A DNA stretch of 64,000 nt from Candidatus Methylacidiphilales bacterium (GCA_025056655.1 JANWVL010000164.1:661-64660); one strand, 5' to 3'. Shown: positions 1 through 64,000, numbered from the stretch's first letter. A program made the numbers and translations. Notes: generated from the sequence alone by a model not told the origin.

Positions 1-68
1 AAAGCCAAAAGTCACAAGCACGTTTCTACGACAGATTTAATTGAGGTGCTACTTTCATCTTTAACTTT

Positions 69-123
69 CTGCTCCGCCGATAATAAGAAAATAAGAAAAC
101 CGAATTTCGGCGGAGCAGTTTTT
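69..123 (+). terminator. Rho-independent terminator candidate for a gene ending upstream of the window
   Basis: Perfect 12-bp inverted repeat ctgctccgccga (69-80) / tcggcggagcag (107-118) followed directly by ttttt (119-123). The loop is long (26 nt) and A-rich. Confidence 0.55.
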
Positions 124-207
124 ACCGGTTTGTTGATTTGATCGGATGCCACTAACTCTTGAGTATTTTCCAGTCGGCATATTCCTATGGCATGTTGAAT
201 TTGACAC

Positions 208-1227
208 ATGATATCAAAAAGAGGTTTTCACTATGCTCTTTATCTCCTGGCACAGTTGGCCCTAGTGCAGGTAGGATATTCTAGTGATAAACTAAAGGCT
301 TTAGACACCACCCCTGCAAAGTTGCCAGACTTTACTACCTTCGAAAACCAAGCTAAAAAGGCCCTCTACGAAAATAAGATTCAAAGTAACACATTTCCGG
401 ATTACAGCAAGCTACAAAACCAACTTATTCCTTATGTCATATACAGGAATAGGAATACCGAAGGCATTCACGACCAAGACAGTGACCATCATAAAAACTG
501 GTTGTATAAAGATCTAGAAAAACTCAAAGAGGCACGCGCTGAAAGACAGAAACTTAATTCAGAAGACAACATTCAGTCTGACACTCAAATCTACCTAACC
601 AAAAATCCAGATGTCTTTTCCCTGGGCTTAAATTCATCTTCAGAAGGATTACGTTTCTTTGGCTTACCTCCTAGCCAAGAAGCTCATTCAAAACAAGACA
701 ATCTTAAGTTCAGTTCTTTCCCTATTGATCTACCAAATGAATTAAACCAAATCTCCAACCCCGTAACAGGGTTGTCAAAACCTCTTCAGATGGGAATTTA
801 CAATAATAACATCAAAGATGACCTAAGTCAAAATTCTAAGTCGCTTCCGCTATCCAATTCTATATCAAGGCGATCACCAGTTGATGAATTAACCAACAGT
901 CTTATTTCTATTGGTGATATGAATGATACACTACTGACCTACAAGCCACAAATGTCTTTAACACCACAACTGCAGATCCAGAATCCCAGATTTCCTTCCC
1001 CACAACAACACCTGTCTAATCCTAATAATCTACTTATAGATAAAATCGGCACATTAGATACAAATAACCCTAATTCATCACTCTCTCGCAACTACACACC
1101 ACCATCACTCAACAACGATTTCAGGCGACTACTCGATCCACCTCCCTTACGATCCCCCAGAGTCTTAGGCAACCCTAATCTTAATCCCAACAAAATCAAC
1201 GACCCGCTAGAGCGCTTCTACAGATAA
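208..1227 (+). CDS. Hypothetical secreted protein, Asn/Ser/Pro/Leu-rich low complexity
   Basis: 339-aa ORF with a hydrophobic N-terminal signal-like segment (HYALYLLAQLALVQVGYSS). I recognised no conserved motif. It is AT-rich with unbiased codon usage, unlike its neighbours. Confidence 0.5.
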   Translation: MISKRGFHYALYLLAQLALVQVGYSSDKLKALDTTPAKLPDFTTFENQAKKALYENKIQSNTFPDYSKLQNQLIPYVIYRNRNTEGIHDQDSDHHKNWLYKDLEKLKEARAERQKLNSEDNIQSDTQIYLTKNPDVFSLGLNSSSEGLRFFGLPPSQEAHSKQDNLKFSSFPIDLPNELNQISNPVTGLSKPLQMGIYNNNIKDDLSQNSKSLPLSNSISRRSPVDELTNSLISIGDMNDTLLTYKPQMSLTPQLQIQNPRFPSPQQHLSNPNNLLIDKIGTLDTNNPNSSLSRNYTPPSLNNDFRRLLDPPPLRSPRVLGNPNLNPNKINDPLERFYR

Positions 1228-1239
1228 TATTATCCCACC

Positions 1240-1699: not shown

Positions 1700-4210
1700 A
1701 TGCCCCCAACCCCACACCCTCACGCCCCATCTCCCGCTCCCCCTCCACCACGTCCATCCGACATCCTCCGACAACTCCAGCAATCCCACACCCTTACACA
1801 CGACTCCCTCCAAAAAAAAATCCAACGCGAGCTCTCCTACCTCATCAACCCCTCCACCTCACCAGACTCCCGCCATCCCTCCATTTACCACTTCTCCATC
1901 CATCCCCTACCTTTCATCTTACCAGCAGAAGACTGGCGCACCCTCTCCGAAGCCTTCTCCCAGCGCCTCCGCGCTTGGAATATCGCCCTTACCGATATCT
2001 TTTCCGAACAGTCCCTCATCCGACAACGCATCCTTCCACACCGCCTCATCTACAACGACCCCTCCTACCTACGCCCAATCCTAGGAATCAAACCCATCGG
2101 CGACACCCCCATCCGCATAGCCGCCATCGATTTCGTCCATGATTCCCAAGGCCAATGGCACGTCCTCGAAGAAATCTTCTCCCAACCCTACGGTATCGGC
2201 ATCGCCCTTCATCTAAGACAATCCCTCGGAGAAATCTATACCCGCGAACTCTCCTCACTCCCCATCGAGTCCCCATCCGCCGTCCCAGCACTCATCCAAG
2301 AAAACCTACAAAATTGCGGCCTCTCCTTCTCCCACCGCCCCCGACTCGCACTTCTCACCCTCGGCCCACAATCCCCCTCATACGCTGATCAAGCCATCCT
2401 CGCCCGAATGATAGGCATCCCCCTCATCCAACCCGACGAACTCCTCGTCCTTCAAGGCCAACTCTTCCTCAAAACCATAGACGGCCTCCAACCCATAGAA
2501 ATCCTCCTCCGCTTCATCCCAGCCCAAAATATCGACCCCGTATCCATCCCCTCACAAACCCCACACCAAGGCATCCCCGGCATCACCTCATGCCTCCGCA
2601 AAGGCACTGTCGCCATAGCCAACGCCCCATCCGCCGACCTCCTCCAAAACCGCGCCCTCACCACCTACACCCCACACCTCATCAGACACCTCCTACACCA
2701 ACACCCCATCCTCCCCGACCTCTACCGCGCCCCACTCACCGACATCGACGTCCGCGAACAACTCTTCGACGACTGGCCCTCCTACATCATCAAGCCCACC
2801 CACCCCCACCCCAACACCCCAAGCCTCAACGGCGCCCTCCTATCCCAAGACCAGCGCCGCCACTGGCAGCAAATCATAGAACAAAACCCCTCCAAATGGA
2901 TCATACAAAAAAACCTCCTCCACCACAACCCCCCACACGACCCCATCATCCTCCGCCTCTTCGCCTTAGCCGATCACCACCGCATCACCCTCCTCCCCTG
3001 CGCCCTCACCCGATCCCTCCAACCCCCCCCCACAGACCACACCCACCCCTTCCCCCCCACCCCCATCCGCGACACCTGGATCCTCCAACCCACACCCCAC
3101 ACCCCCACACCCCCGCACCCCGCCCCCCCCACCACACACCACCGCCACCCCATCGAACTCTCCCTCCCCCCTCAAACCCACGAAATCGTCGGAGAACGCC
3201 TCCGCCTCTCCAGCCGCACCGCCGAATCCCTCCTCTGGATCAGCCGCTACCTCACCCGCGCCGCCACCACCACCCAACTCCTCCGCACCCTCCTCCAAAT
3301 CAGAGCCACATCAGACCCACAAACCACCGCACCCAAAACCTGGCAACCCCTCTGGGAAACCCTAGCCGCCGCCACAGGCCACCCCACCACCTACTTCGAA
3401 AAAAACAAACTCACCCACCCCTCCCAACTCTCCCACTACATCCTCCTCTCCCAAGAAAACAACGCCTCCGCCTACCACTCCATACGCCTCGCCCACCAAA
3501 ACACCCTCGCCTCACGCGAATCCATCCCCACCGAACTCTTCACCCTCATCACCGACCTCTACCACCTCCTCCACACCTACAGCACCCAACCCCCCCACTC
3601 CCTCGACCCCATCCTCAACGACCTCTCCCTCCACAACTCCCTCATCCAAACCCACGAACAAATCACCGGCGCCGCCCTCCACCACCTCCTCCGCGACGAC
3701 CCATGGCACTTCTGGAACATCGGCCACCACATCGAACAAGCCATCTTCACCACCATCACCTTCCGCCAACTCATCCTACCCCTCCGCTCCCCCACACAAG
3801 ACCCCTCCCTCATCCACGACACCCTAATCCGCCTCTTCGCCTGCCAATACGCACACCGCAAACACCACCCACACCGCCCCACCCTCCAATCCATAGCCTC
3901 CATCCTCCTCACACTCCCCACATTCCCACGCAGCCTCGCCTTTCACTACCACACCCTCCACCACCACCTCACCACATGCTTCCCCCTCACCACACCCACA
4001 CCGACCACACCCGCCATCCACACCCTACACCACCTCACCACCCTCCACACCCTCCCCCTCCACCAAATGTGCACCCCCAAAAACTCCTCCCTCCCCATCG
4101 CAGACTGGCTCGCCGAAGAGACCCAACACCTCCACCACCTCGCCAACCTCATCACCGACCACCACATCCACCACTACCACACCCACCTCCTCTCCCACAC
4201 CCCCACCTAA
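1700..4210 (+). CDS. Fusion protein: circularly permuted type-2 ATP-grasp domain plus C-terminal alpha-E domain
   Basis: The N-terminal half resembles CP ATP-grasp proteins (GIPLIQPDELLVLQGQLFLKTIDGLQPIEILLRFIPAQNIDP). The C-terminal half carries the alpha-E signature region (SRTAESLLWISRYLTRAATTTQLLRTL). The two are joined by a Pro/Thr/His-rich linker in one 836-aa frame. Confidence 0.75.
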   Translation: MPPTPHPHAPSPAPPPPRPSDILRQLQQSHTLTHDSLQKKIQRELSYLINPSTSPDSRHPSIYHFSIHPLPFILPAEDWRTLSEAFSQRLRAWNIALTDIFSEQSLIRQRILPHRLIYNDPSYLRPILGIKPIGDTPIRIAAIDFVHDSQGQWHVLEEIFSQPYGIGIALHLRQSLGEIYTRELSSLPIESPSAVPALIQENLQNCGLSFSHRPRLALLTLGPQSPSYADQAILARMIGIPLIQPDELLVLQGQLFLKTIDGLQPIEILLRFIPAQNIDPVSIPSQTPHQGIPGITSCLRKGTVAIANAPSADLLQNRALTTYTPHLIRHLLHQHPILPDLYRAPLTDIDVREQLFDDWPSYIIKPTHPHPNTPSLNGALLSQDQRRHWQQIIEQNPSKWIIQKNLLHHNPPHDPIILRLFALADHHRITLLPCALTRSLQPPPTDHTHPFPPTPIRDTWILQPTPHTPTPPHPAPPTTHHRHPIELSLPPQTHEIVGERLRLSSRTAESLLWISRYLTRAATTTQLLRTLLQIRATSDPQTTAPKTWQPLWETLAAATGHPTTYFEKNKLTHPSQLSHYILLSQENNASAYHSIRLAHQNTLASRESIPTELFTLITDLYHLLHTYSTQPPHSLDPILNDLSLHNSLIQTHEQITGAALHHLLRDDPWHFWNIGHHIEQAIFTTITFRQLILPLRSPTQDPSLIHDTLIRLFACQYAHRKHHPHRPTLQSIASILLTLPTFPRSLAFHYHTLHHHLTTCFPLTTPTPTTPAIHTLHHLTTLHTLPLHQMCTPKNSSLPIADWLAEETQHLHHLANLITDHHIHHYHTHLLSHTPT

Positions 4211-4277
4211 CCCCGCGACCCACTTGATTTTTTAACAACACCCCGATAAACCCATCCAACCCACACCCCCACCACCT

Positions 4278-6332
4278 ATGCAACACCCCACCCCCACCAC
4301 AGAACCCCCCACATTCACCACCACCCCCATCGAACACCTCATCGCCAACACCATCCGCATCCTCACCATCGATGCCATCGAAAAAGCCCACTCCGGCCAC
4401 CCAGGCCTCCCCATGGGATGCGCAGACTTCGCCACCATCCTCTGGACCCAATTCCTCCGCCACAACCCCGCCAACCCCCACTGGCCCAACCGCGACCGCT
4501 TCATCCTCTCCGCAGGCCACGGCTCCATGCTACTCTACTCCCTCCTCCACCTCTGCGGCTACCCCCACATCACCCTAGAACAACTCCAAAAATTCCGCCA
4601 ACTCCACTCCCTCACCCCAGGCCACCCAGAAGCCCACGAAACCCCAGGCGTCGAAGTCACCACAGGCCCCCTCGGCCAAGGCACAGGCAACTCCGTCGGC
4701 CTCGCCATCGCCCAAAAACACCTCGCCGCCCTCTTCAACACCCCAGACTTCAACCTCTTCGACCACCGCATCTACACCATCGTCTCCGACGGCGACCTCC
4801 AAGAAGGCATCTCCCACGAAGCCGCCTCCCTCGCAGGCCACCTCGGCCTCGATAACCTCATCTGGTTCTACGACGACAACCGCGTCTCCATCGAAGGCTT
4901 CACCGACCTCGCCTACTCCGACGACGTCCCCACCCGCTTCCGCGCCTACAACTGGCACGTCATCACCATCGACGGCCACAACCACTCCCAAATCCACGCA
5001 GCCCTCCGCGAAGCCCTCACCATCACAGGCCGCCCCACCCTCATCATCGGCAAAACCACCATCGGCAAAGGCTCACCCAAGCTCCAAGGCCAACCCAAAG
5101 CCCACTCCGACGCCCTCGGCCCACAAGAAGTCGCCGCCACCAAACGCGCCCTCGGCTGGCCCGAAGACTCCCAATTCCTCATCCCCTCCCGCGTCACCGC
5201 CTACTTCCAAAAACTCCGCCACGAACTCGCCGCCCAAGAAACCGAATGGAACCGCACCCTACAAGCCTACACCCGCGCCTACCCCCAAAAAGCCGCACTC
5301 CTCAAAAAAATCCAAGAAAAACAAATCCCCACAAACCTCCCCGACCTCCTCCCCCAATTCCAAGCCGGCCAAAACCTCGCCACCCGCAACGCCAGCGGCC
5401 AAATCCTCACCACCCTCTTCGACCACCTCCCCCACCTCATCGGCGGATCCGCAGACCTCGCCCCCTCCACCAAAACCTGGATCAAAACACACGGCTCATT
5501 CCAAAAAAACCACTACCACGGCCGCAACCTCCACTTCGGCATCCGCGAACACACCATGGCCGCCATCCTCAACGGCATCGCCTACCACCGCTCCGGCCTC
5601 ATCCCCTTCGGCGCCACCTTCTTCGCCTTCACCGACTACATGCGCCCCCCCATCCGCCTCGGAGCCCTAAGCAAACTCCACACCATCTACGTCCTCACCC
5701 ACGACTCCATCTTCGTCGGAGAAGACGGCCCCACCCACCAACCCGTCGAACACCTCGCAGCCCTCCGCGCCATCCCGCGCCTCTCACTCATCCGACCCGC
5801 CGACGCCAACGAAACCGCCCAAGCCTGGCTCGTCGCCCTATCCCAACAAGACCGCCCCACCCTCCTCGTCCTCACCCGACAAGACATCCCCACCCTCGAC
5901 CGCTCCAAATGCGCCCCTGCCACAGGCCTCCGCCAAGGCGCCTACATCCTCTGGGAAGCCAATCCCAACGTCCCACCCCAAATCATCCTCATCGGCACAG
6001 GCTCAGAAGTCCACCTCTGCCTACAAGCCGCCGAACACCTCGCAGCAGAAGGCTACGCCCCACGCGTCGTCTCCATGCCCTCATGGGACCTCTTCGAAGC
6101 ACAACCCCAATCCTACAAAGACCACGTCCTCCCCCCATCCATCCCCGCACGCATCGCCGTCGAAGCCGGCATCCGCATGGGCTGGGAACGCTACATCGGC
6201 GAAAAAGGCCTCTTCATCGGCGTCGAACGATTCGGCGCCAGCGCCCCCCACACCCGCCTCCAAGAAGCATACGGGCTCACAGTCCCCCACATCCTCTCCA
6301 AAACCCGCGCCCTCCTACCCCCAACACCCTAA
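4278..6332 (+). CDS. tkt: Transketolase
   Basis: Carries IEKAHSGHPGLPMGCAD (TPP-binding HSGHPG motif) and THDSIFVGEDGPTHQPVEHL. The 684-aa length is typical. Confidence 0.95.
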   Translation: MQHPTPTTEPPTFTTTPIEHLIANTIRILTIDAIEKAHSGHPGLPMGCADFATILWTQFLRHNPANPHWPNRDRFILSAGHGSMLLYSLLHLCGYPHITLEQLQKFRQLHSLTPGHPEAHETPGVEVTTGPLGQGTGNSVGLAIAQKHLAALFNTPDFNLFDHRIYTIVSDGDLQEGISHEAASLAGHLGLDNLIWFYDDNRVSIEGFTDLAYSDDVPTRFRAYNWHVITIDGHNHSQIHAALREALTITGRPTLIIGKTTIGKGSPKLQGQPKAHSDALGPQEVAATKRALGWPEDSQFLIPSRVTAYFQKLRHELAAQETEWNRTLQAYTRAYPQKAALLKKIQEKQIPTNLPDLLPQFQAGQNLATRNASGQILTTLFDHLPHLIGGSADLAPSTKTWIKTHGSFQKNHYHGRNLHFGIREHTMAAILNGIAYHRSGLIPFGATFFAFTDYMRPPIRLGALSKLHTIYVLTHDSIFVGEDGPTHQPVEHLAALRAIPRLSLIRPADANETAQAWLVALSQQDRPTLLVLTRQDIPTLDRSKCAPATGLRQGAYILWEANPNVPPQIILIGTGSEVHLCLQAAEHLAAEGYAPRVVSMPSWDLFEAQPQSYKDHVLPPSIPARIAVEAGIRMGWERYIGEKGLFIGVERFGASAPHTRLQEAYGLTVPHILSKTRALLPPTP

Positions 6333-6434
6333 AAACACCCACACCCACCCACCCCCCCAAAACCCTCCCCCAAACCCCCATCCCACAGCCGTTTTAGAAT
6401 TCACATTCCACACACCTCATCTAGATGAAAAACG

Positions 6435-7220
6435 ATGAAGATCATCCGACACCCGCCCACCATGCAGCGCACAGCCCTGCAATGGCGCAAAGAAGGAAAA
6501 CAAATCGCCCTCGTGCCCACCATGGGCGCCTTACACCCAGGCCACGAAGCACTCATCAAAAAAGCCCGTAAACAAGCCGACATCCTCATCGTCAGCATCT
6601 ACGTCAATCCCACCCAATTCTCCGCAGGAGAAGACCTCCACCGCTACCCCCGCCCCTTCCGCACCGACTGCCAAAAATGCCGCCTCTGGGACGTAGACAT
6701 CGTCTTCGCACCCAAAAATCTCTACGCCCCCGATCACTCCACCTGGGTAGAAGAACTCTCCCTCAGTCAAGGCCGCTGCGGCCCCTTCCGACCAGGACAC
6801 TTCCGAGGCGTCACCACCGTCGTCGCCAAGCTCTTTCTAATCTGCCAACCCCACCTCGCCTTCTTCGGCCAAAAAGACGCCCAACAACTCGAAGTAATCC
6901 AAAGAATGGTGCGAGACCTCCACTTCCCCATAAAAATCATCCCAGTTGAAACCATCCGCGATACAGACGGACTCGCCTTCAGCTCCCGCAACACCTACCT
7001 AAGCCCAACAGAAAGACAAAAAGCACGACAATTTGCCGCCGCACTCCAACAAGCCATACACCATCCCAATCCCATATCCTGGTTCAAAAAAGAAATCTCA
7101 CGCCTAAAAGGTGTCCGCCTAGACTACGCCGAGATCGTCAACAATCGACTATGCGCCGCAGTGCACATCGGCAAAACCCGACTCATTGACAACGTAGCAA
7201 CCACACTCAAAAAAAAGTAA
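6435..7220 (+). CDS. panC: Pantoate--beta-alanine ligase
   Basis: Carries VPTMGALHPGHEALI (canonical VPTMGxLHxGH) and GQKDAQQ. 261 aa. Confidence 0.92.
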   Translation: MKIIRHPPTMQRTALQWRKEGKQIALVPTMGALHPGHEALIKKARKQADILIVSIYVNPTQFSAGEDLHRYPRPFRTDCQKCRLWDVDIVFAPKNLYAPDHSTWVEELSLSQGRCGPFRPGHFRGVTTVVAKLFLICQPHLAFFGQKDAQQLEVIQRMVRDLHFPIKIIPVETIRDTDGLAFSSRNTYLSPTERQKARQFAAALQQAIHHPNPISWFKKEISRLKGVRLDYAEIVNNRLCAAVHIGKTRLIDNVATTLKKK

Positions 7221-7223
7221 ACC

Positions 7224-8243
7224 ATGAGACTGAGACGAGCGCGACTTTTCTCAAGACTCCACACATCCTGCCTCGCGCTCCTCATCCTATGCCCCACAGC
7301 AACCGCCAGCATATGGCAAGTCGTCCGCGTAGGCCCACTAGAATACGTCACACTAAAATCCTTTTGCCGCTTCTACTACTTCCCCTACGGAGAAGGCCCC
7401 CTCTCAGACACCTTCACCGTCCAAAACACCAGCTTCCGCCTCGTCTTTCGCCGAGATAGCCAAATCGTCCGAATCAACGAAGTCAACTACTACCTCTCAA
7501 GCTCCATCATAGATCATCCCGCAGGATGGCTCATCCCCAAAACAGACATCACAAAACTCTTTGACCCCATCTTCCGACCTCAAGCCATCCCCATCCGCAG
7601 ACCCGTGCGAGGCGTCGTAATCGATCCCGGCCACGGCGGCTCCGACCGCGGCGCCACCGGACTAAACGGAGCCTTAGAAAAACACTACACACTAGACACT
7701 TCATTACGACTCGAAAAAATCCTACGCGCCGCCGGCGTTCGCACCGTCATGACGCGCCGCAGCGATGTCTTCGTCGAATTACACGAACGAACCCGATTCG
7801 CACGCAACTTCGCAGGACACATATTCGTAAGCATCCACTACAACTACGGCTTCAACCGCCAAGCCCGCGGAGTCGAGACCTTCGCCATGGCCCCTCGCGG
7901 AGTCGCCTCCACAGCCGTAGGAGAATTCCCCTCTCGCGCCGACCACATAAAACAAATCGGAAACGAAAACGACCCCCTAAATATCCTACTAGCCCACCAA
8001 GTCCATAGACAAATCGTGCGCCTCTTCCCCGGTGACCCCGAAGCCGATCGCGGCGTCAAACGAGCGCGCTTCGTAGTCCTGCGCACAAACTACCTCCCCG
8101 CCATCCTAGTAGAAGGCGGCTTCCTCACCAACCGCATGGATCTACGCCTTGTAGATAACCCCGTCTATCGCCAGCGCCTAGCTGAGGCAATCGCCACCGG
8201 CATACTCAACTACATACGATTAAACCAGCCAACCCAACCCTAA
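7224..8243 (+). CDS. N-acetylmuramoyl-L-alanine amidase (Amidase_3 family) with signal peptide
   Basis: Carries the IDPGHGGSDRGA motif, SIHYN, and a C-terminal VEGGFLTN. The N-terminal hydrophobic leader ends in ATA. Confidence 0.88.
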   Translation: MRLRRARLFSRLHTSCLALLILCPTATASIWQVVRVGPLEYVTLKSFCRFYYFPYGEGPLSDTFTVQNTSFRLVFRRDSQIVRINEVNYYLSSSIIDHPAGWLIPKTDITKLFDPIFRPQAIPIRRPVRGVVIDPGHGGSDRGATGLNGALEKHYTLDTSLRLEKILRAAGVRTVMTRRSDVFVELHERTRFARNFAGHIFVSIHYNYGFNRQARGVETFAMAPRGVASTAVGEFPSRADHIKQIGNENDPLNILLAHQVHRQIVRLFPGDPEADRGVKRARFVVLRTNYLPAILVEGGFLTNRMDLRLVDNPVYRQRLAEAIATGILNYIRLNQPTQP

Positions 8244-55188: not shown

Positions 55189-56703
55189 CTACTTCTCCAT
55201 TCTCACACCGTCCTCCTTCCTCGGAAACAAAGGCTCGGCGGGAGATATTACACGACCTTTCAGAACCTCTGTTTGGCGGATCCGACCAAAAGAAAAATCC
55301 TCAGGCTCACCCAAGAACCCCATCACTTTTCGCGACGTTGTCGGCATCACAGGCTCTAAAAGCAAACCAATTCTTCTGATCGCTTCGCACAGCGTCACCA
55401 ACACCCGATCGAGCTCCTCCAAGCGCTGCTCTTTTGCCAGACGCCAAGGTGCTCGCTCCTCGACATAACGATTAGCCCTTTGTATCCTGCTCCACACTGC
55501 CTCAAGAGCTGCATGAACTTGACCGTTTTCCATGCAGCGAAGGTAGATTTCACAACATTCATCATCTACCAACTCCATTTCTTCTGCCGACTGCGGCACG
55601 CAACCCCCTCGATATCGATGCACCATCGAAAGCGTCCGCTGCACCAGATTACCCCAATCGTTGGCCAAATCAAAACTATATCGGTCGGCAAAACGTTCAT
55701 CGCTAAAATCTGCGTCCTGCCCTGTAACCATCTCGCGCATCACAAAATATCGAAAAGCATCCGCTCCCCAATGCTCAATATAAGGCACCGGGTCAACGAC
55801 ATTCCCAATAGACTTGCTCATCTTCGCTCCTCGGTTCATCCACCAACCATGCACCAACAACCGCCGAGGCCACTCCAAACCAAGCGCTATCAACATAGCC
55901 GGCCAATAAATCCCATGCGCCGGAATTAAAATGTCTTTCCCTATAAGCTGAATGTCAGCAGGCCAGCGGCTCGTGCCATCAGCATTAAAAGCAAACGAAA
56001 TGTAATTTAACAACGCATCAAACCAGACATAAGTGACGTATTGCTCATCGAAAGGCAACGGAATCCCCCATTCAACACGACTCTTGGGACGCGAGATACA
56101 AAGTGGCTCAAGCGGCTCTTCAAGCAACGTCAACAATTCTTTTCGGCGAAACGTCGGCTCAATCCAGTTTTCCTCTCTTACAATACGCTCTCGGATCCGC
56201 TCTCGATACGGCTCCATTACAAAAAAATAGTTGGGCTCACGCATCTCCACGACTTCCCCGTAGATCTCAGGCCAGCTCCCATCCGCATTTCGGTCTTTTT
56301 CTGTAACAAACTGCTCCTGCCGCACACTGTAAAAGCCTACATGGTCTTTGAAGACGATTTTTCCTTCGTCATAGAGTCGCTGGAGACATCCTCGGACGTA
56401 GGATTGATGAGCCTCTAGAGTTGTGCGAGCAAACCGATCATATCGAATGTCCAGCCGCTTCCACAGGGCAATAAAATGTGCAGTCATTTCATCACAGAAA
56501 GCCTGGGGCGCCTTATTCGCAGCACGCGCTGACTGTTGGACTTTTTGTCCGTGCTCATCCACACCGGTCAGGAAAAGAACGTCTCGTCCCTGGTTGCGCT
56601 GGAAACGGGCAAGGACGTCAGCAAGAATTTTTTCGTAGGCATGCCCGAGATGAGGTTTTCCATTCACGTAGTCAATCGCCGTAGTGATGAAAAACCGCTT
56701 CAT
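55189..56703 (-). CDS. metG: Methionine--tRNA ligase
   Basis: Carries TAIDYVNGKPHLGHAYE (HIGH-type) and GAKMSKSIGN (KMSKS). The start is trimmed to the ATG at 56703 (MKRFFITT). Confidence 0.93.
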   Translation of the reverse strand: MKRFFITTAIDYVNGKPHLGHAYEKILADVLARFQRNQGRDVLFLTGVDEHGQKVQQSARAANKAPQAFCDEMTAHFIALWKRLDIRYDRFARTTLEAHQSYVRGCLQRLYDEGKIVFKDHVGFYSVRQEQFVTEKDRNADGSWPEIYGEVVEMREPNYFFVMEPYRERIRERIVREENWIEPTFRRKELLTLLEEPLEPLCISRPKSRVEWGIPLPFDEQYVTYVWFDALLNYISFAFNADGTSRWPADIQLIGKDILIPAHGIYWPAMLIALGLEWPRRLLVHGWWMNRGAKMSKSIGNVVDPVPYIEHWGADAFRYFVMREMVTGQDADFSDERFADRYSFDLANDWGNLVQRTLSMVHRYRGGCVPQSAEEMELVDDECCEIYLRCMENGQVHAALEAVWSRIQRANRYVEERAPWRLAKEQRLEELDRVLVTLCEAIRRIGLLLEPVMPTTSRKVMGFLGEPEDFSFGRIRQTEVLKGRVISPAEPLFPRKEDGVRMEK

Positions 56704-56789
56704 AGATGCGATAAACAGTTTTCCCCTTAGCCCTATACTCAACCAGATACAAGCCTCAATCGCTTATCGCGAGGTCAGAAAGTCAACGA

Positions 56790-57947
56790 TTAGCCTTTGT
56801 GAGCAGTGAGACCTTTCATAACATAACCTGCAGGCCATTCACGCCCGTAGATCAAGAATTTGAAAGCGCGCCCGAGGTGTTCCGGATGGATTAAGGCCTG
56901 AAAGCCACGGAGTATTTTAGGCTCAATGGGATTTGTATGGGTAAACGAGCTAAAAAAGTCTGGCCAGAGACCTACAAGGAAATGGCGTTGATCACAGAAA
57001 CCAATCTCTTGCAAACCACATCTCTGCGACTCATGTCGCAGAAGGCTCCAGTTCACATGAGCAGTGATATCTTGAAGGCCTGGATTTTGAAGAGGATTTG
57101 CGAGTTGACGGTGTTTTGAATAGCATCGCAAAGTGCCCAAGCTCCGAATCGGGTCGTAGTATTCTTCAGCGCTGAGGCCATAGTCTACTGTAATAATAGC
57201 CCCACGCTTCAGAACGCGCGCAGCTTCTCTTATCCAGTTCCGCGCCTCAAGATGGAGCTCCGTAGTGTATCCTTCGATCGGAGGTATCTTCCACAATTCA
57301 ATCTCCTGTCTCACATCGTCATCAATGGGCCCCTCAACTTCGTAGAAGTCACCGCCTGATTCACTAGCACCGACATAGATTTCCCGCCATTTATTTTCAA
57401 CAAACCGAATCAATCGAACAGGAAGGCTATCTATAACTTCATTAGTAAAAATAATCCCGGTAAGACTCAACGGATCAAGGTCCGATAGGCTTTTTATCCA
57501 ACTCAAACGAGCTCCCTTCGTAATGAAAGGCTGCATGGTTTTCTTTTGAATACGCAGACACGGAGTAAGAGGCTCGATGAAAATATAATGCGCCATGGAT
57601 TGAAGAGGCGAGGAGATACGCCGCCACTCAGTATACACATCGGCAGCAAATTGGCCATCATGAGCTCCAGCTTCACAAATAACAAAGTCCGCAGGACGAT
57701 CGAGTTTCTCCCATATCTCTTGAAACTGGTTGGCCATAAGTTGCCCCCAGACACTGCCGACTGAGACGCTCGTGTAAAAATCCCCTTTGCGGCCTATTGT
57801 GAGATTGGCACGATTGTAGTAACCCCCATGTTCACTATAAAGACAATGGCTCATGTAACAATCAAACCGCATCGGACCATGCCGTGCGATTTGTTCCCGC
57901 AAAATATCCGCGAGTGTGCGTGTGCTTAGACCTTGCGACGAGGGCAT
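56790..57947 (-). CDS. SAM-dependent methyltransferase, MidA/NDUFAF7-like (DUF185)
   Basis: 385 aa. The N-terminus IARHGPMRFDCYMSHCLY...GGYY, GDFYTSVSV and ICEAGAHDG resemble the DUF185 family. Confidence 0.65.
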   Translation of the reverse strand: MPSSQGLSTRTLADILREQIARHGPMRFDCYMSHCLYSEHGGYYNRANLTIGRKGDFYTSVSVGSVWGQLMANQFQEIWEKLDRPADFVICEAGAHDGQFAADVYTEWRRISSPLQSMAHYIFIEPLTPCLRIQKKTMQPFITKGARLSWIKSLSDLDPLSLTGIIFTNEVIDSLPVRLIRFVENKWREIYVGASESGGDFYEVEGPIDDDVRQEIELWKIPPIEGYTTELHLEARNWIREAARVLKRGAIITVDYGLSAEEYYDPIRSLGTLRCYSKHRQLANPLQNPGLQDITAHVNWSLLRHESQRCGLQEIGFCDQRHFLVGLWPDFFSSFTHTNPIEPKILRGFQALIHPEHLGRAFKFLIYGREWPAGYVMKGLTAHKG

Positions 57948-58609
57948 ATTTGCAAAGTTTGAGAGAGCTTAACGATTTGCCGTTCCTCAAGAATCCCTCG
58001 CCACACAACACTGGGATAAATTAAGCTTTCACGCCCAATGATGCTGCCGGGATTTAAGACTGCTTGGCAGCCAATTTCTGCTCTATCTCCGATGAGAGCA
58101 CCAAGCTTTCTAAGCCCGGTCGGATATGCCTTTCCAAGATGATGCAGGACGATTTCATCCCCGGTAAGTTTAAGGTTTGACAAGATGACACCAGCGCCGA
58201 GATGAACACCATTACCTAGAATTGAGTCACCAACATAAGAAAAATGAGGCACCTGACAATCATTCATGAGAATGCAATTTTTAAACTCGCATGAATTCCC
58301 TAGAATGCAATTCTCGCCTATGATCACGTTTTCTCTGAGATAAGCCCCAGTTCGTATCCGAGTGCAGTGCCCAATAATAGCAGGCCCTAAAATTACTGCT
58401 CCTGGCTCTACTACCACCCCTTCTCCGAAAGTTACCTGTTCCCCTATGTATGCTTCTCCAAGTATTGTAGGAGGATGAGAACTAAAAGTAGATCTTTCCA
58501 GATAAGATTTGATTTTAGGAATCGCTTCCCACACATACCGGCAATCACTAAATATTTCGCGGTGCGCAAATTCCTGCAGATCAAATAGCGCACTCGCACT
58601 CAAATCCAT
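57926..58609 (-). CDS. Left-handed beta-helix (hexapeptide repeat) transferase, GlmU C-terminal-like
   Basis: Repeated [LIV]-G-x-x-x-x hexapeptides run throughout (IGEQVTFGEGVVVEPGAVILGPAIIG ...). Its 3' end overlaps the downstream gene start by 22 nt. Confidence 0.65.
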   Translation of the reverse strand: MDLSASALFDLQEFAHREIFSDCRYVWEAIPKIKSYLERSTFSSHPPTILGEAYIGEQVTFGEGVVVEPGAVILGPAIIGHCTRIRTGAYLRENVIIGENCILGNSCEFKNCILMNDCQVPHFSYVGDSILGNGVHLGAGVILSNLKLTGDEIVLHHLGKAYPTGLRKLGALIGDRAEIGCQAVLNPGSIIGRESLIYPSVVWRGILEERQIVKLSQTLQICPRRKV

Positions 58610-58694
58610 ATAAGTTTTCTAGTTTTTACACTCTATGTGTCAAACAAAGTATATCCCTACTTTGCCCAAATAGACCCCGCTGCTACGCCTGGAA

Positions 58695-59981
58695 CTATTC
58701 AGGCATTAAAGGAAGTTCTAAATAAATTGTTGTGCCGACTTCAAGTTGGCTTTCCGCCCAAATACGACCGCCATGAAGTTCAATTATTTGCTTCACAATA
58801 GACAGCCCCAACCCCATACCCCCTCGATCTCGACTCCGCGATTTATCTACGCGATAAAAACGGTCAAATATATAGGGTAAATCTTGTGCTGGAATCCCCA
58901 TCCCTTGATCACTCACTGTAATGCGTATTACATGATCACGATGTTCAGCCCGGACAGTTATCCGGGTGTGAGGTTCTGAATATTTCGAAGCATTTTCTAG
59001 CAAGTTATGCATGACTTGTTCCATACGGGCAGGATCTGCCTCGAGTAGAGGCAGTTCCCTAGGGCAGATCAACTCGATTTCCTGTTGAGACTCTTTTAAT
59101 ATCAGCCTCCAATCATTTACTATCCGCTCGAGTAACTCCGGAACCTTTATCACTAAAGGCTCCAGTCCCACCCGTCCTGTCTCTAGCCGTGCTAGGTCCA
59201 CAAGCTCATCTACCAGCGACGTAAGCCGAGAAACATGCTTATTCATAATGCTCAAAATTCGGTGTAACTCGCTAATATCTACCCTCCTTTGTGCTAGCAA
59301 AATCTCAAGATAACCACGAAAGACAGACAAAGGCGTTCGCAACTCATGAGAGACATTAGTCACAAACTCTCGTCTCACATTTTCCACTCGTTTGAATTCA
59401 GTAATGTCATGAAATAATAGAATAGCCCCTCGTCGAGCATGTGCCTCCCTAGTTGAAGGATGAATAATCGGCGTCACACTCGCCTCCACCACTCGTTCTT
59501 GCGATTGATCTGTGGTCACCGAAATTTCGCATTGCTGACGTTTCCCACTATCAATCGCTTTTCGCAAAATAATCTCAAGATCAGCATTTCGAAATACCTC
59601 TAGCACACTACGACCAATCAAAACCTCTTTGATTCCAAAAAGTCTCCCAACGGCAAGATTAGCTTCCTGAATGACGTGGTTCTCATCCACAATCGCCACC
59701 CCCTCGGCCATGTTTTCAAGCAGAGCTTTCAGATCGTATGCCTCCTTTTGGACTTGATCCTCTAGCTGCTCCAGCCGCGCGGCAAGCCCCTCGATAAACC
59801 CTGCCCAACGCCTCGATGCCTTAGAGTTTCCGAAAAAATACTTCTTATGCCTGATTCCTCGAGAAAGCTCATCCAGCGCCTTCCCTACTCGAACCATAGA
59901 TCGCACCCGCGCATAAAGCCATATTGTCACTGCAACGCAGATACAAAAAACAAAAATTAAAACCAACTCCCAAAGACTCAT
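58695..59981 (-). CDS. Sensor histidine kinase (TM anchor, PAS, HisKA, HATPase_c), PhoR-like
   Basis: Has the H-box SHELRTPL, N-box HNLLENASKY, DQGMGIP and GGMGLGLSIV. Confidence 0.88.
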   Translation of the reverse strand: MSLWELVLIFVFCICVAVTIWLYARVRSMVRVGKALDELSRGIRHKKYFFGNSKASRRWAGFIEGLAARLEQLEDQVQKEAYDLKALLENMAEGVAIVDENHVIQEANLAVGRLFGIKEVLIGRSVLEVFRNADLEIILRKAIDSGKRQQCEISVTTDQSQERVVEASVTPIIHPSTREAHARRGAILLFHDITEFKRVENVRREFVTNVSHELRTPLSVFRGYLEILLAQRRVDISELHRILSIMNKHVSRLTSLVDELVDLARLETGRVGLEPLVIKVPELLERIVNDWRLILKESQQEIELICPRELPLLEADPARMEQVMHNLLENASKYSEPHTRITVRAEHRDHVIRITVSDQGMGIPAQDLPYIFDRFYRVDKSRSRDRGGMGLGLSIVKQIIELHGGRIWAESQLEVGTTIYLELPLMPE

Positions 59982-60153: not shown

Positions 60154-60933
60154 TCAACGATACCTAAAATCCAAATGCCCTGAGTCCGCCAAGATTTGAA
60201 TCTTCCCATTTGCACGCTCTATCCATTCCACCCTGCCACCTGCTTCTTGGACAAGCAAAATCCCCGCCGCTACATCCCACCACGACACCTCCTGCTCCAT
60301 ATAAGCATCTAACCGGCCCGCCGCTACATACGCCAAATCTAAAGCAGCTGCCCCCATCGCCCTAAGCTTCTTCACCCGTAACCCATAATACTCATACAAC
60401 TTCAACGTATGCGATATAGTCTCTACCCTCCTCGCAAAACCAATAGATATCGCAGCCTCAGAAAGATCCCCTCGTTCACTTACCCTTATCCGTTCCCCAT
60501 TTAAATAAGCTCCCTTTCCCAATCTAGCCGTAAAAAGCTCATCCCGAATTGGATCATAGATTACCCCACACACAACCCTACGACTGACTTGCGCCGCAAC
60601 CGAAACACAAAAATGCGGTATCCGATACGAAAAATTCACCGTCCCATCCAACGGATCCACAATCCATTTCACCCCCACCCCATCGTCATCCTTCACACGG
60701 TTCCCCTCACTTTCCTCACCCACTATTTGAGCCCCTGGAAAATAATCCAAAATCACTTTCTCAATCGCAGCTTGAGCCTCCACATCGGTTTCTAACTTTA
60801 TATCGTGCGCCGACTCAGCCCTTACCCTTAAAGGCAAACGAAAATCTCGTCGAATAACCACAGACGCCGCCTTCACAGCCTCAATCGCACAATCCAACAC
60901 TTCCTCATCCGCCATAAAAATCTGCTCGCCCAT
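60154..60933 (-). CDS. Inositol monophosphatase family protein (SuhB-like)
   Basis: Carries WIVDPLDGTVNF, the GEE metal motif (IVGEESE) and WDVAAG. 259 aa. Confidence 0.85.
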   Translation of the reverse strand: MGEQIFMADEEVLDCAIEAVKAASVVIRRDFRLPLRVRAESAHDIKLETDVEAQAAIEKVILDYFPGAQIVGEESEGNRVKDDDGVGVKWIVDPLDGTVNFSYRIPHFCVSVAAQVSRRVVCGVIYDPIRDELFTARLGKGAYLNGERIRVSERGDLSEAAISIGFARRVETISHTLKLYEYYGLRVKKLRAMGAAALDLAYVAAGRLDAYMEQEVSWWDVAAGILLVQEAGGRVEWIERANGKIQILADSGHLDFRYR

Positions 60934-60975
60934 TTGCTACAACCAACTTCAATGCAATACAAATCCAATCCTCAA

Positions 60976-62943
60976 CTAAAACCGCTCCGGCAACATCCCC
61001 CAATACACAATCGAAGCCACCACAAACATCACACACAACCCCACTTTCACCGCGATCCGCCAACCCGTCCTCCCACGCGTCGCCGCCTCTGCTATCACCA
61101 TCGCCATCGGCACCAACACAGGCAATATATACCGAAACTCATTCGCACATCCGTAATGCACCTTCATCCTAAAATAAATCATCGAAGCAAAATACAACAC
61201 AATTAACGTATACACAGGCACCTTCTCCCACCAATCCGCCTCCACATAGCGCACCAACCCATAAACCACCATCCCCAAAAGCAGCACAAAATTAAAATTC
61301 AACCACCACGCCCAATCATCATGCCTCCGCCCACCTACACCATATTCCCCAAAAAGACTAGTCTTAAAAAGATAGTTCCAAAAATGCTTCTTCCCCTCCT
61401 CATTGTAAGGATTGGTGTAAATGATACTCATAAACGAAAACGGATCGAAAACTAAAAAACTCCGTAGATTCGTCTCCACCCACATCCCAGGGTTCAACGC
61501 CCCAGCGTTCGGCACCAAAGCCTGGGCCATACTAAAATTCGGATCCTTGAAGTTTATCGCTTTCAAATTCCGCGCCAAATACAAACCCACAAATAACGCC
61601 GTCACCCCCAATAGCACCCCCAGACACCGCAGATACCGCCCCCACTGCATCCTCCGCAGCCCCTTCCAGACACACTCCGCTCCCCTCACCCCATCTCGTA
61701 TCCTCAACAAAGCTGCCTCCCGATACACCATTCCCACACATACAATACACAACATCATCCCAAGCCACCCCACCAACACAAGCCCATTACTCTTCGCATA
61801 AAACGCAGCCGCTGCACAGAGCGCACTCCACACCCACTCCCCCCGCCACACCCCCCCCAACGGCCACCCCTCCTCCCTCATCCTTCGCCACCAACGAAAC
61901 CCCAAAAAAATACCCCAAGCCGACAAAGCATACAACAACGCATCATTCCCAAGCCTAATCGAATGCATAATTCCCCCCGGCCAAAAACAAAACACCGCCG
62001 CCGCCAAAGCCTGCAAACCCGGCCTCTGCACCAACTGAAATATCGCCAACACCCCCCCCGCCAGATACAACCCAAAAAGCACCACCGCCAACACCTGCAA
62101 CGCCTGATACGGATTCGGAGCCCCACACACCTCCGAGCACCACCACACCGCCGCCCCCAACAAATAATAAAACGGCGCATGATAAAACACAAACCCCTCA
62201 TCCACCTTCGGCAGCCGTCCCCTCTCCACAATCGCCATCACATACGCACTATGCACCCCAGGCCCATACCCCTCATCATACGTCCTCTCATGCGGCTTCG
62301 TATATCGCAAGTAAGCCAACACCAACATCAACGCCCCCATCACCAATCCCGCCCCCCAAAGCGGCGCTCCAAACCGCCTAAACAACGCCACCATAAACAT
62401 CGCCGCACTCCCCACAGCCCCCACCCACAAAATCAAAAAAACCGGATCCCAAAAATTAATCCTCAGCCACACACCCGGCGCATCCTTAATCTCATTCTCC
62501 AAGAAAAACTCAAACGGCACCACACCACCCTTCACCCCACGCCCATCCAACACATACCGCTTAAAGAAAAACTGATCATAAAACGGATCCACAATCTGAT
62601 AATGCGTAAACTGCACCTCCCGCCCCGCCACCACCCCCTTAAAATTCGGCCGCGTATGCCTCAACTCAATCCCCATCGTCTTCTGCGCCCACCACCCCTT
62701 CACCCGCATCTCCCCCACCAACCGTGAGCGGCCATTCCAAAACGGCTCCCGCTTCTCCAGCGGCACCACCCATGGCCGCTTCATCTCAAACTCCTCCCCC
62801 GTCCGCTCCGACACAAGCTTAAGCTTCTCCATCCGAGGTGCCGTCACCATCATCGCCCATAAAAAAAACACCAACACACCCGCCCAGCACCACATATTCA
62901 CCACCGCTGCCCTCAACCAAAACTTCACCAAAGTCCAAACCAT
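60976..62943 (-). CDS. Large polytopic membrane protein, possible GT-C fold glycosyltransferase (PMT_2/ArnT-like)
   Basis: 655 aa with more than 10 predicted TM helices. YDEGYGPGVHSAYV...FYHAPFYYLLGA resembles the DE loop plus PPLYY-type motif of family 39/83 glycosyltransferases. It is strongly Trp/Gly/Val-rich. Confidence 0.5.
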   Translation of the reverse strand: MVWTLVKFWLRAAVVNMWCWAGVLVFFLWAMMVTAPRMEKLKLVSERTGEEFEMKRPWVVPLEKREPFWNGRSRLVGEMRVKGWWAQKTMGIELRHTRPNFKGVVAGREVQFTHYQIVDPFYDQFFFKRYVLDGRGVKGGVVPFEFFLENEIKDAPGVWLRINFWDPVFLILWVGAVGSAAMFMVALFRRFGAPLWGAGLVMGALMLVLAYLRYTKPHERTYDEGYGPGVHSAYVMAIVERGRLPKVDEGFVFYHAPFYYLLGAAVWWCSEVCGAPNPYQALQVLAVVLFGLYLAGGVLAIFQLVQRPGLQALAAAVFCFWPGGIMHSIRLGNDALLYALSAWGIFLGFRWWRRMREEGWPLGGVWRGEWVWSALCAAAAFYAKSNGLVLVGWLGMMLCIVCVGMVYREAALLRIRDGVRGAECVWKGLRRMQWGRYLRCLGVLLGVTALFVGLYLARNLKAINFKDPNFSMAQALVPNAGALNPGMWVETNLRSFLVFDPFSFMSIIYTNPYNEEGKKHFWNYLFKTSLFGEYGVGGRRHDDWAWWLNFNFVLLLGMVVYGLVRYVEADWWEKVPVYTLIVLYFASMIYFRMKVHYGCANEFRYILPVLVPMAMVIAEAATRGRTGWRIAVKVGLCVMFVVASIVYWGMLPERF

Positions 62944-63068
62944 GCACGGCTTATAAACACACCCCCTCCCCTTTCAAGTTCTCACACATAAAATAAAAAC
63001 CCCGCATTGCACTTCCCCCATCCTTCCTCTACAACTCCACCTTCAACCACACACCCCTCCACCCCGCT

Positions 63069-64000
63069 ATGCCACAATCCGAAATCATGGACAAACTCGT
63101 CGCCCTCTGCAAACGGCGCGGCTTCATCTTCCAATCCTCAGAAATCTACGGCGGCCTCAACGGCGCCTGGGACTACGGCCCCCTCGGCGCTCAACTCAAA
63201 AAAAACATCAAAGACCACTGGTGGCGCACCATGACACAACTCCGCGACGACATCGTCGGCATGGACGGCGCCATCCTCATGAACCGCGCCGTCTGGCGCG
63301 CCTCCGGCCACGAAGACACCTTCAACGACCCACTCGTCGATTGCAAAACCTGCAAAGGCCGCTTCCGCGCCGACCAACTCACCTCCACCCCCTGCCCGCA
63401 AAAACCCTCCAAAACCGTCGGCCAAACCGACGCCTGCTCCCTCACCGAACCCCGCAGCTTCAACCTCATGTTCAAAACCTACGTCGGCCCCGTCGAAGAC
63501 GACTCCAACCTCACCTACCTCCGCCCCGAAACCGCACAAGCCATCTTCGTCCAATTCAAAAACGTCCTCGACACCTCACGCCTCAAACTCCCCTTCGGCA
63601 TCGCCCAAATCGGCAAAGCCTTCCGCAACGAAATCAACCCGCGCAACTTCACCTTCCGCTCCAGAGAATTCGAACAAATGGAACTCGAATTCTTCGTAAA
63701 ACCAGGCACCGGCCTCCAATGGACAGACCACTGGCTCGAAGAACGCCTCAAATGGTATGAAACCATCGGCATCCCCCGCCACAAAATCCACATCCTCGAC
63801 GTCCCAGAAGATCAGCGCGCCTTCTACTCCCGCAAAACCTACGACCTCCAATACGAATTCCCCTTCGGCATCCAAGAGCTCGAAGGCATCGCCTACCGCA
63901 CCGACTACGACCTCTCTCGCCACCAAGAAGCATCCGGCAAACCCCTCGAATACTTCGACGAAGAGACCAAACAAAAATACATCCCCCACGTCGTCGAGCC
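63069..64000 (+). CDS. glyQS: Glycine--tRNA ligase (alpha2 type), 5' portion, running off the window end
   Basis: Translating from the ATG at 63069 gives MPQSEIMDKLVALCKRRGFIFQSSEIYGGLNGAWDYGPLGAQLKKNIKDHWW..., the canonical GlyQS N-terminus. The frame stays open to 64000, so it is absent from the ORF track. Confidence 0.9.
   Translation, partial: MPQSEIMDKLVALCKRRGFIFQSSEIYGGLNGAWDYGPLGAQLKKNIKDHWWRTMTQLRDDIVGMDGAILMNRAVWRASGHEDTFNDPLVDCKTCKGRFRADQLTSTPCPQKPSKTVGQTDACSLTEPRSFNLMFKTYVGPVEDDSNLTYLRPETAQAIFVQFKNVLDTSRLKLPFGIAQIGKAFRNEINPRNFTFRSREFEQMELEFFVKPGTGLQWTDHWLEERLKWYETIGIPRHKIHILDVPEDQRAFYSRKTYDLQYEFPFGIQELEGIAYRTDYDLSRHQEASGKPLEYFDEETKQKYIPHVVE

Follow-up and report, generated by a model that had tools for sequence, protein, structure and literature searches.

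A 64,000-nucleotide stretch of DNA from an uncultured Verrucomicrobiota bacterium (hereafter the window, positions 1 to 64,000) raises the question of how one chromosome segment can be extremely rich in A+C on one strand, turn G+T-rich some kilobases (kb) further on, and then switch back again. The window is part of contig JAVQYG010000002.1 (175,625 bp) of GCA_033577315.1, a metagenome-assembled genome (MAG) labelled as a Methylacidiphilales/Verrucomicrobiae bacterium; its position 1 corresponds approximately to record position 14,823, and the transketolase encoded from 4278 to 6332 is identical to a protein of this assembly. The flanking contig added sequence on both sides, and window coordinates -5724 to 70933 were covered, 76.6 kb in total. 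The bias was expressed as M-K, that is, (A+C)-(G+T) on the plus strand, computed in 1-kb intervals for all sites, and as M-K3, the same quantity at third codon positions. A preliminary description had claimed an extreme A+C versus G+T asymmetry that oscillates smoothly, changes sign about four times within the window, and lies far beyond what is usual for a bacterial chromosome.

The asymmetry was present, and it was even stronger at silent sites. Per 1 kb, the plus strand had GC skews between -0.72 and +0.57 and AT skews between +0.34 and -0.28, and the two were anticorrelated in the window, indicating an amino versus keto bias. At 3-4 kb, for example, the plus strand contained 54% C, 24% A, 13% T and only 9% G. 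The all-site M-K was +0.14 to +0.29 at 1-2 kb, rose to +0.30 to +0.56 at 2-8 kb (C up to 54.4%, G down to 8.9%), fell to +0.11 to +0.26 at 8-13 kb, and was +0.21 to +0.33 at 13-22 kb. It was then weakly negative at 23-28 kb (-0.05 to -0.17), weakly positive at 28-34 kb (+0.01 to +0.16), -0.04 at 35-36 kb, and strongly negative at 36-49 kb (-0.15 to -0.39, with a dip at 39-43 kb where it was -0.08 to -0.20). Finally, values of about 0 were found at 49-53 kb, +0.06 to +0.23 at 53-60 kb, and +0.31 to +0.46 at 60-64 kb. All the segments previously listed were therefore recovered near their expected positions, with the corrections that the first 1.7 kb was weakly A+C-rich rather than unbiased, and that 22-23 kb was still A+C-rich. 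Third codon positions were much more biased than all sites: M-K3 was +0.88 to +0.96 over 2.4-6.4 kb, where C occupied about 0.8 of the third positions, G 0.01-0.05, and T 0-0.02, and further extremes were found at 37.2 kb (-0.87), 44.8 kb (-0.85) and 62.4 kb (+0.91). The G+T-rich peaks were the base-for-base complement of the A+C-rich ones, the G+T-rich strand having 0-4% A and 2-7% C at third positions. A chance origin of the bias was excluded, because runs of 50 consecutive every-third bases composed solely of A or C occurred 223 times in the window and not once in 100 dinucleotide-preserving shuffles.

The strength and polarity of this bias vary continuously along the chromosome. Within the window, the sign changed at approximately 23.3, 28.5, 34.5-35.5 and 48-50 kb, and the flanking contig contained two more sign changes, at about -0.7 and 64.4 kb, along with a return to near zero (+0.09, in a partial carbamoyltransferase gene) at about 69.3 kb in the right flank. 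Over the 76.6 kb covered, polarity reverses at least six times, the strand favoured changing every 5-25 kb. Three of the zero crossings fell inside genes, i.e., cinA, lpxC-fabZ and a ligase gene, and six long genes displayed significant internal M-K3 trends (p from 8e-3 to 2e-7), such as secA (from +0.60 to +0.29, p = 4e-5), an ATP-grasp gene (from +0.72 to +0.95, p = 2e-7) and the ligase gene (p = 1.4e-3). Intermediate M-K3 plateaus, at about 0.2-0.6, were long and common. Sharp steps were also observed at gene boundaries near 1.7, 35.9, 40.0, 42.8, 48.1 and 64.45 kb; sharp steps went upward at about 1.5, 27.1, 40.0 and 48.5 kb, and downward at about 21.5, 35.9, 42.8 and 64.4 kb. The smoothness first described was thus supported by the within-gene gradients but not by the steps found at some gene boundaries.

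The bias was indifferent to the direction of the genes that it crossed. Twenty-one junctions with a flip of gene orientation gave an orientation term T of +0.015 ± 0.028 and a mean regional term |R| of 0.40. The mean M-K3 jump was 0.18 at these flip junctions vs 0.14 at 46 same-orientation junctions, no sign change occurred at 14 of the 21 flips, and the zero crossings began inside genes, all in agreement with the previous claim that the bias follows the region and not the coding strand, and against the alternative named there, that every sign change coincides with a change of gene orientation. Between skew and gene orientation, r was 0.32, and a smoothed orientation track did no better. The coding strand was A+C-rich in 36 genes, G+T-rich in 19 and neutral in nine, a weak tendency (36 vs 19, p = 0.03), and the 19 opposite-sign genes reached up to full amplitude. 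Coupling to sense transcription was rejected on the basis of the junction test and the orientation correlation.

The bias is mutational, since it hits the spacers as well as codon positions 1, 2 and 3, and it drags protein composition along. The spacers at 4211-4277 and 6333-6434 had M-K values of +0.55 and +0.61, and the divergent spacer at 46457-46740 had -0.52, with 4% C, sharing in each case the surrounding bias; codon-usage selection was rejected as the cause because the spacers carry the bias. The coding-strand bias at positions 1+2 correlated with that at position 3 (r = 0.75), and so did an amino-acid index (r = 0.68). In the transketolase, His accounted for 5.7% of the residues vs about 3% in normal relatives, and Val for 3.2% vs about 6%. 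When the third positions of this gene were compared with the orthologue of a relative, L003, 85% identical, C in the window faced T in the relative 122 times and the reverse was found once, C was opposite G in a ratio of 41:0, and A opposite G in one of 22:1, these counts being unpolarised by an outgroup and taken from sites near saturation. On the A+C-rich strand, T>C came first, followed by G>C, G>A and A>C; read on the G+T-rich strand, the corresponding changes are A>G, C>G, C>T and T>G. Because of this direction of change, GC content climbs with the strength of the bias, and GC content at third positions followed 0.43 + 0.30|M-K3| (r = 0.76). Taken with the complementarity of the G+T-rich and A+C-rich peaks, this suggests a single process that varies in strength and polarity.

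Two Logan contigs, from an independent assembly of SRR15826902, matched 3135-63636 at 99.91-99.99% identity and spanned all four transitions within the window; the sole break between them was at 33390, away from any transition. Short contigs from SRR15826901 and SRR25904939 matched the window too, with identical pieces, and all the open reading frames (ORFs) were intact and homologous to known families, the bias being dependent on codon position. Families found among the ORFs were transketolase, PanC, SecA, Obg, LpxC-FabZ, LpxA, ZnuABC, RRF, CorA, TsaD, LpdA, QueH, Amt, GltX, MetG and GlyQS. Since the independent contigs agree at more than 99.9%, a chimeric join at the transitions is very unlikely on this contig-level evidence, and the window appears to be a genuine chromosome segment. 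An artefact, whether a chimeric assembly, strand-specific DNA damage, chemical conversion in the library or a binning error, could be suspected because the sequence is a MAG and the Logan contigs end at 3135 and 63636, in the most extreme regions. Against it stand the reproduction of 3135-63636 and the matching contigs from the other two runs, the intact ORFs of known families with their codon-position-dependent bias, and the presence of the same phenomenon in three different relatives from other samples. We therefore regard an artefact, one of the causes initially proposed, as extremely improbable. It was also observed that, of the three Logan contig ends (3135, 33390 and 63636), two are within the most extreme C-rich stretches, and this hints at a drop-out of coverage or assembly in strongly skewed DNA.

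Whether the polarity map is inherited was addressed with syntenic pieces from relatives. In L125 (GCA_053502375.1), whose LpxC-FabZ is 87% identical to that of the window, the gene order znuB-znuC-znuA-lpxA-lpxC/fabZ-metallophosphoesterase / NYN-coiled coil-DegT is kept. Along these genes, and in window orientation, the M-K3 of L125 was -0.40, -0.48, -0.10, -0.07, +0.35, +0.62, +0.62, +0.58 and +0.23, and that of the window was about -0.15, -0.2, -0.15, -0.2, 0, 0, +0.2, +0.4 and +0.2. Identity at fourfold-degenerate sites between the window and L125 was 0.24-0.52, with 0.24-0.42 expected, and in the eight genes with at least 44 such sites it was 0.24-0.40 vs 0.24-0.38. Because these sites are saturated, the sign change inside the intact block has been kept in both genomes past the point where silent-site memory should be lost. 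Similarly, the genes for the membrane protein, suhB and the kinase follow one another in the same order in L130 (JGI 3300043543; 59% protein identity), and the coding-strand bias there decays through -0.57, -0.49 and +0.14, vs -0.83, -0.55 and -0.29 in the window, with the same unusual G+T-rich coding strand; silent-site saturation was measured for L125 and assumed for L130 from the 59% protein identity. The closer relative L003 had the same sign at the ATP-grasp and transketolase genes. The probability that three syntenic blocks match in sign and shape by chance was roughly 1 in 30 to 1 in 60, which is suggestive but not overwhelming, and the polarity map looks like an inherited local equilibrium. 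Relatives at 67-73% identity showed uniform, ordinary skew: the GC skew was about -0.1 in L004 and -0.13 to +0.27 in L126, at 67% GC, and the M-K3 of L135 (73% identity) was -0.20 to +0.08, with one sign across 21 kb. Since these relatives are ordinary, the trait is, as judged from the sequences compared, derived in a small clade comprising the window MAG, the L003/L125 organism(s) and L130. The |M-K3| of at most 0.20 in L135 also bears out that the amplitude in the window exceeds the ordinary bacterial one.

What, then, sets the polarity? A transcription-coupled asymmetry, where damage or repair linked to the transcribed or non-transcribed strand spreads by read-through from a few very active operons, would fit the A+C-rich coding strand of 36 of the 55 clearly skewed genes and the sharp changes of level at 42.8 and 64.45 kb, where gene ends converge. 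Every sign change also lies within 1-2 kb of an orientation switch; however, there are about 26 such switches per 76.6 kb, by a count on the gene map, and this closeness is expected by chance. The T value of 0.015 ± 0.028, flip steps no bigger than those elsewhere, and an orientation correlation (r = 0.32) that drops with smoothing all argue against it, and the minus-strand operon at 59-63 kb departs most from the rule beside its own promoter, so that we consider this explanation very unlikely. An inversion mosaic, in which a very strong origin-to-terminus skew is cut into segments inverted at different times, each relaxing to the sign of its present orientation, shares with classical replication skew a dominant regional term and irrelevance of gene direction. 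It would also accommodate several sharp level changes that fall at gene boundaries, as well as the synteny break relative to L003 (tkt-panC vs tkt-cobW) that coincides with the small step at 6.4 kb. The position of adh_short and tkt fits it too: in a normal relative the two genes sit side by side in the same orientation, but here they lie on opposite strands flanking a sign change. Nevertheless, the window and L125, although mutually saturated at fourfold-degenerate sites, each keep both signs within one intact syntenic block, with larger amplitude in L125 (-0.48 / +0.62), and the gradient is kept at the 59% protein identity of L130. Moreover, gradients run inside the secA, ligase and ATP-grasp genes, where breakpoints cannot fall, at least six switches in 76.6 kb would be required, and the only inverted or direct repeat of at least 40 nucleotides (nt) is a 40-nt low-complexity pair. 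Many recent rearrangements in a strongly skewed genome, as first suggested, are accordingly disfavoured, given the conserved signs and gradients in L125 and L130, the gradients inside essential genes and the absence of flanking repeats, and we rate the mosaic as unlikely. Invertible segments or flips mediated by insertion sequences were rejected on the same repeat search.

A further possibility is a sequence-intrinsic, self-reinforcing polarity, in which the G-rich strand is kept exposed, or is spared, by a structure or repair bias, and the skew domains are heritable with the DNA; candidates would be stable R-loops in which the sense or antisense RNA is G-rich, G-quadruplexes, and long-patch repair that is directed by nicks and recognises an asymmetric motif. 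Such a polarity would be consistent with stability past silent-site saturation, independence from the origin-to-terminus axis, and the coupling of GC content to skew strength. The modest excess of C-rich coding strands (36 vs 19, p = 0.03) is what selection against sense R-loops would give, and in the membrane-protein operon the G-rich coding strand peaks at the 5' side and decays downstream in two lineages. However, feedback predicts bimodality with thin walls, and long intermediate plateaus (about 0.2-0.6) are common instead; the amplitude is equal for genes with G-rich and C-rich sense RNA (T about 0), and full skew is also seen in a divergent spacer that probably has little transcription. 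We find this explanation quite improbable, and its simple bistable form was rejected because intermediate plateaus are common. Shapes expected from resection at double-strand breaks, from nick translation or re-synthesis, and from a sawtooth of discrete lagging-strand priming were compared with the profile by eye; each fits some domains, and none fits all.

The reading that we tentatively favour is a position-specific, mitochondrial-DNA-like and transcription-independent strand-specific mutation pressure at local equilibrium, with local control of the strand that is exposed or re-synthesised; it falls among the unusual replication or repair modes suggested in the preliminary description. Such a pressure would drive neutral sites almost to fixation, to A or C on one strand and to G or T on the other. 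The position-dependent factor is probably which strand is more often single-stranded, deaminated at A and C, or re-synthesised at low fidelity, and polarity would be set by local, transcription-independent DNA transactions and not by a single origin-to-terminus axis. DNA synthesis with many start and end points, through recombination-dependent or multi-site initiation, is one candidate, and long-patch strand-directed repair is another. It is also possible, although doubtful, that free-living Verrucomicrobiota of one clade, and perhaps bacteria scattered elsewhere, have a chromosome in which the polarity of DNA synthesis or single-strand exposure is set locally, so that 5-25 kb domains are each replicated, recombined or repaired in a fixed direction, by way of multiple initiation and termination zones or of strand-directed long-patch repair, under a map inherited across species.

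Several points weigh against the favoured mutation pressure. Its link to single-strand exposure or re-synthesis comes only from the mitochondrial DNA analogy, and the transversions G>C and A>C, both towards C, occur more often than deamination by itself would explain, although such changes could also arise in several steps where sites are near saturation. Sharp steps in both directions do not match a simple multi-origin fork-polarity map, and the level changes at gene boundaries and the synteny break at 6.4 kb, described above, also count here. No cluster of DnaA boxes was found at the switches (13 sites vs 15.4 expected, unclustered), nor was an AT-rich unwinding element or AT-rich window at any of them, and replicons of 10-25 kb are, to our knowledge, unprecedented in bacteria. 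The data basis consists of 76.6 kb from one genome and short pieces from three relatives. Our literature search, made for the accessions as well as for similar patterns, found no comparable report or published precedent, and we regard the pattern as a new form of a known feature, strand compositional asymmetry, which could be categorically new if the map reflects a new mode of replication or repair.

The domains can be followed along the window, where zero tRNA or Rfam matches were found that could serve as RNA-gene landmarks. Positions 1-1699 form a transition zone from the G+T-rich flank to A+C-rich DNA, with a low GC content (0.39-0.47), an ORFan at 208-1227 and a small minus-strand ORF at 1240-1665; M-K3 was -0.34 to -0.63 in the upstream flank and +0.03 to +0.17 in the 208-1227 gene. 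A gene of the uracil-DNA glycosylase superfamily (PF03167; 315 amino acids, aa) lies in this flank at -1636 to -689, immediately upstream of the first polarity switch. The extreme A+C-rich domain at 1700-8243 (plus strand) contains a circularly permuted ATP-grasp/alpha-E gene, transketolase, panC and amidase_3 (Pfam), all with C-rich coding strands, and its M-K3 rose from +0.60 to +0.96, being +0.74 to +0.82 past 6.4 kb. The genes at 8257-12701 are on the minus strand (pfkB-like kinase, AhpC/TSA, ABC ATPase, FtsX permease) and keep the A+C bias of the plus strand, so that their coding strands are G+T-rich; there was no step at the 8243 junction (+0.68 vs +0.70), and the amplitude dropped to +0.29 at 11.2 kb. 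Next, 12702-22545 is strongly A+C-rich and carries genes in both orientations (rplU, rpmA, obg, Fe-S assembly, ksgA and def on the minus strand, phoH, a 7TM-HD protein and secA); its M-K3 was +0.37 to +0.73 and decayed within secA, from +0.60 in the left third to +0.29 in the right third. The weak G+T-rich domain at 22557-29082 lies between two zero crossings, in cinA and lpxC-fabZ, and its znuB, znuC, znuA, lpxA, lpxC-fabZ and metallophosphoesterase genes are all on the minus strand.

Weak to moderate A+C richness returns at 29150-35927, on whose plus strand lie the genes for NYN/YacP, a coiled-coil protein, DegT aminotransferase, dprA and an ATP-dependent DNA ligase fused to a metallo-beta-lactamase (MBL) domain; here M-K3 was +0.19 to +0.43 and then went from +0.12 to -0.24, with the reversal inside the ligase gene. 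This ligase (33222-35927) has N, adenylation and C domains together with an N-terminal metallo-beta-lactamase/RMMBL nuclease-like domain, adjoins dprA, and is crossed by the sign change; a metagenome scan with its protein returned zero close relatives. The strong G+T-rich domain at 35908-48078 includes three changes of gene orientation and a dip at 40.0-42.8 kb. Its left part carries a 346-aa ORF, frr, a metallophosphoesterase and an EamA protein on the minus strand, then corA and a 194-aa ORF on the plus strand, and its right part tsaD and a radical SAM protein (plus), lpdA, queH and amt (minus), and a TPS-like protein (plus). M-K3 was -0.40 to -0.87 in this domain and -0.07 to -0.43 in the dip. 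The match of the TPS-like protein (46741-48078) to the Pfam TPS secretion domain was weak (23.1 bits vs a cutoff of 33.5), and its richness in Gly, Val, Arg and Glu is as expected from the local G+T-rich coding strand.

The transition at 48079-59981, low to moderate in A+C richness, bears in its left part DUF309 and glutaredoxin genes (both minus), a Lys/Glu-rich ORF, gltX and an AP_endonuc_2-fold protein, and in its right part an LPG-synthase transmembrane protein, the CCA-adding enzyme and, on the minus strand, CYTH, metG, Methyltransf_28, a hexapeptide transferase and a PAS-HisKA kinase. M-K3 lay around 0 from 49 to 52.8 kb, ranged from +0.20 to +0.55 between 52.8 and 56 kb and from +0.05 to +0.31 between 56 and 58.8 kb, and had risen to +0.39 by 60 kb. 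At 60154-64000, an extreme A+C-rich domain contains a divergent gene pair: suhB and a 655-aa membrane protein on the minus strand, both with G+T-rich coding strands, and glyQS on the plus strand (63069-64469). Here M-K3 was +0.53 to +0.91, with +0.78 in glyQS, and it dropped to +0.09 in the next gene, at 64.45 kb. For the 655-aa multi-pass membrane protein (60976-62943), which has no Pfam domain and is rich in Gly, Val, Trp and Phe, one homologue, with 59% identity, was found among 5.8 billion proteins.

Low-GC, ORFan-like genes with little or no skew interrupt the skew field at 208-1227, 40072-40656 and 48776-49312; their products are an Asn/Ser/Pro-rich protein of 339 aa with no Pfam match, a secreted-looking protein of 194 aa, and a Lys/Glu/Ala-rich protein, respectively. 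These three genes may be recent insertions still short of equilibrium. The most skewed regions also contained shadow ORFs of 179-545 aa, which overlap real genes in another frame or run antisense to them (2590-4227, 5246-6397, 36929-37684, 43128-44246, 45627-46286, 61963-62727 and 63221-63760), most of them rich in Pro, Arg and His and one in Gly and Asp. ORF length is misleading here because T-poor or A-poor strands are nearly devoid of stop codons.

Species-representative genomes were scanned with a C/M third-position pattern; the matches listed were mostly repeats in high-GC genomes, and the window's own MAG was absent among them. The matches listed included a Phycisphaerales MAG, L105 (JASBRY010000009.1), with 8-kb stretches whose third-position GC skew of 0.66-0.77 was shared by genes on both strands, and a sharp return of the skew to about 0 at tuf. 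Similar 8-kb stretches among the matches listed were from further unrelated MAGs, L093 (CANHIJ010000007.1, Verrucomicrobiales), L052 (CAZJCL010000080.1, Opitutales) and L036 (JBMFWD010000022.1, Acidobacteriaceae), and in L105 and L036 the genes on both strands shared values of about 0.55-0.77. Comparable regional bias may thus occur outside the clade.

Strand compositional asymmetry is a standard guide to bacterial origins and termini and a standard warning of mis-assembly; such tests would judge this genome mis-assembled, yet it appears correct. Should the polarity map result from locally controlled DNA synthesis or repair, it would point to a mode of chromosome maintenance undescribed in bacteria, and if polarity is locally set, mitochondria-like gradients would be strong enough to rewrite protein composition. 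The locus also offers a natural experiment, in which orthologous core proteins are pushed towards Pro, His, Thr and Gln or towards Gly, Val, Trp and Phe by gene position alone. On the practical side, stop-poor skewed strands create long spurious ORFs that may confuse gene calling, and local extremes of composition may disrupt both composition-based binning and the evenness of sequencing coverage.

How does this asymmetry compare with known systems? In classical bacterial skew (chirochores), the leading strand has more G than C, with one switch at the origin, one at the terminus, and a modest amplitude that stays uniform along each replichore. The bias described here is likewise regional, ignores gene direction, is mutational, and is seen in spacers and silent sites. 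However, its amplitude is several-fold larger (third-position |M-K| up to 0.96 vs at most 0.20 in L135), it has six sign changes and one near-zero return per 76.6 kb along with gradients within genes, a switch is kept inside a syntenic block past silent-site saturation, the switches lack a DnaA-box cluster, and most genes lie on the C-rich and not on the G-rich strand. In the N-domains of eukaryotes, sharp skew jumps occur only at origins and with one polarity, with gradual reversal between them. Like these domains and other multi-origin fork-polarity profiles, the window shows a continuous field with intermediate values and many sign changes, independent of gene direction; unlike them, it has sharp steps both ways and an amplitude orders of magnitude larger. 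We know of no multi-origin replication in bacteria.

Strong asymmetries with a single sign over the replicon have been reported. The Microgenomates Ch65 genome has 29.8% C vs 15.0% G on one strand and no AT skew (PMC7143001), and the Galdieria sulphuraria mitogenome has a GC skew of 0.74, its G-rich strand being also A-rich, i.e., a purine vs pyrimidine bias (PMC4316638); in both cases the authors infer unusual, unidirectional replication (PMC7143001, PMC4316638). The local amplitude found here (1-kb GC skew of -0.72) matches the record value of Galdieria and exceeds that of Ch65, the most strongly skewed bacterial genome among the descriptions that we found, at about -0.33 when computed from the published percentages. 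As in both of them, antisense genes share the regional bias, but here the sign alternates.

The preliminary description had likened the A+C/G+T character of the bias to mitochondrial DNA, and this likeness held. In vertebrate mitochondrial DNA, the gradients of heavy/light-strand asymmetry are attributed to the time spent single-stranded (PMC3269015, PMC4182315). The window differs in belonging to a bacterial chromosome and not to a 16-kb organelle genome, in having at least six reversals per 76.6 kb vs one gradient per genome, in a GC content that rises with the bias, and in frequent transversions towards G on the G+T-rich strand. Its profile has several maxima and steps both ways; under the mitochondrial model, amplitude would vary monotonically with the time spent single-stranded during strand-displacement replication. 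Strand-displacement replication is, as far as we know, not described in this group. In agreement with the mitochondrial case, nonetheless, the asymmetry is between A+C and G+T, is strongest at silent sites, and leaves G nearly gone from the third positions of the A+C-rich strand. The substitutions on the G+T-rich strand, read from near-saturated and unpolarised sites, were A>G, which dominated (122:1), and C>T (22:1), the two expected of the mitochondrial type, but also frequent C>G (41:0) and a net T>G. As in vertebrate mitochondria, the amplitude forms a gradient and the regional bias is common to genes on both strands.

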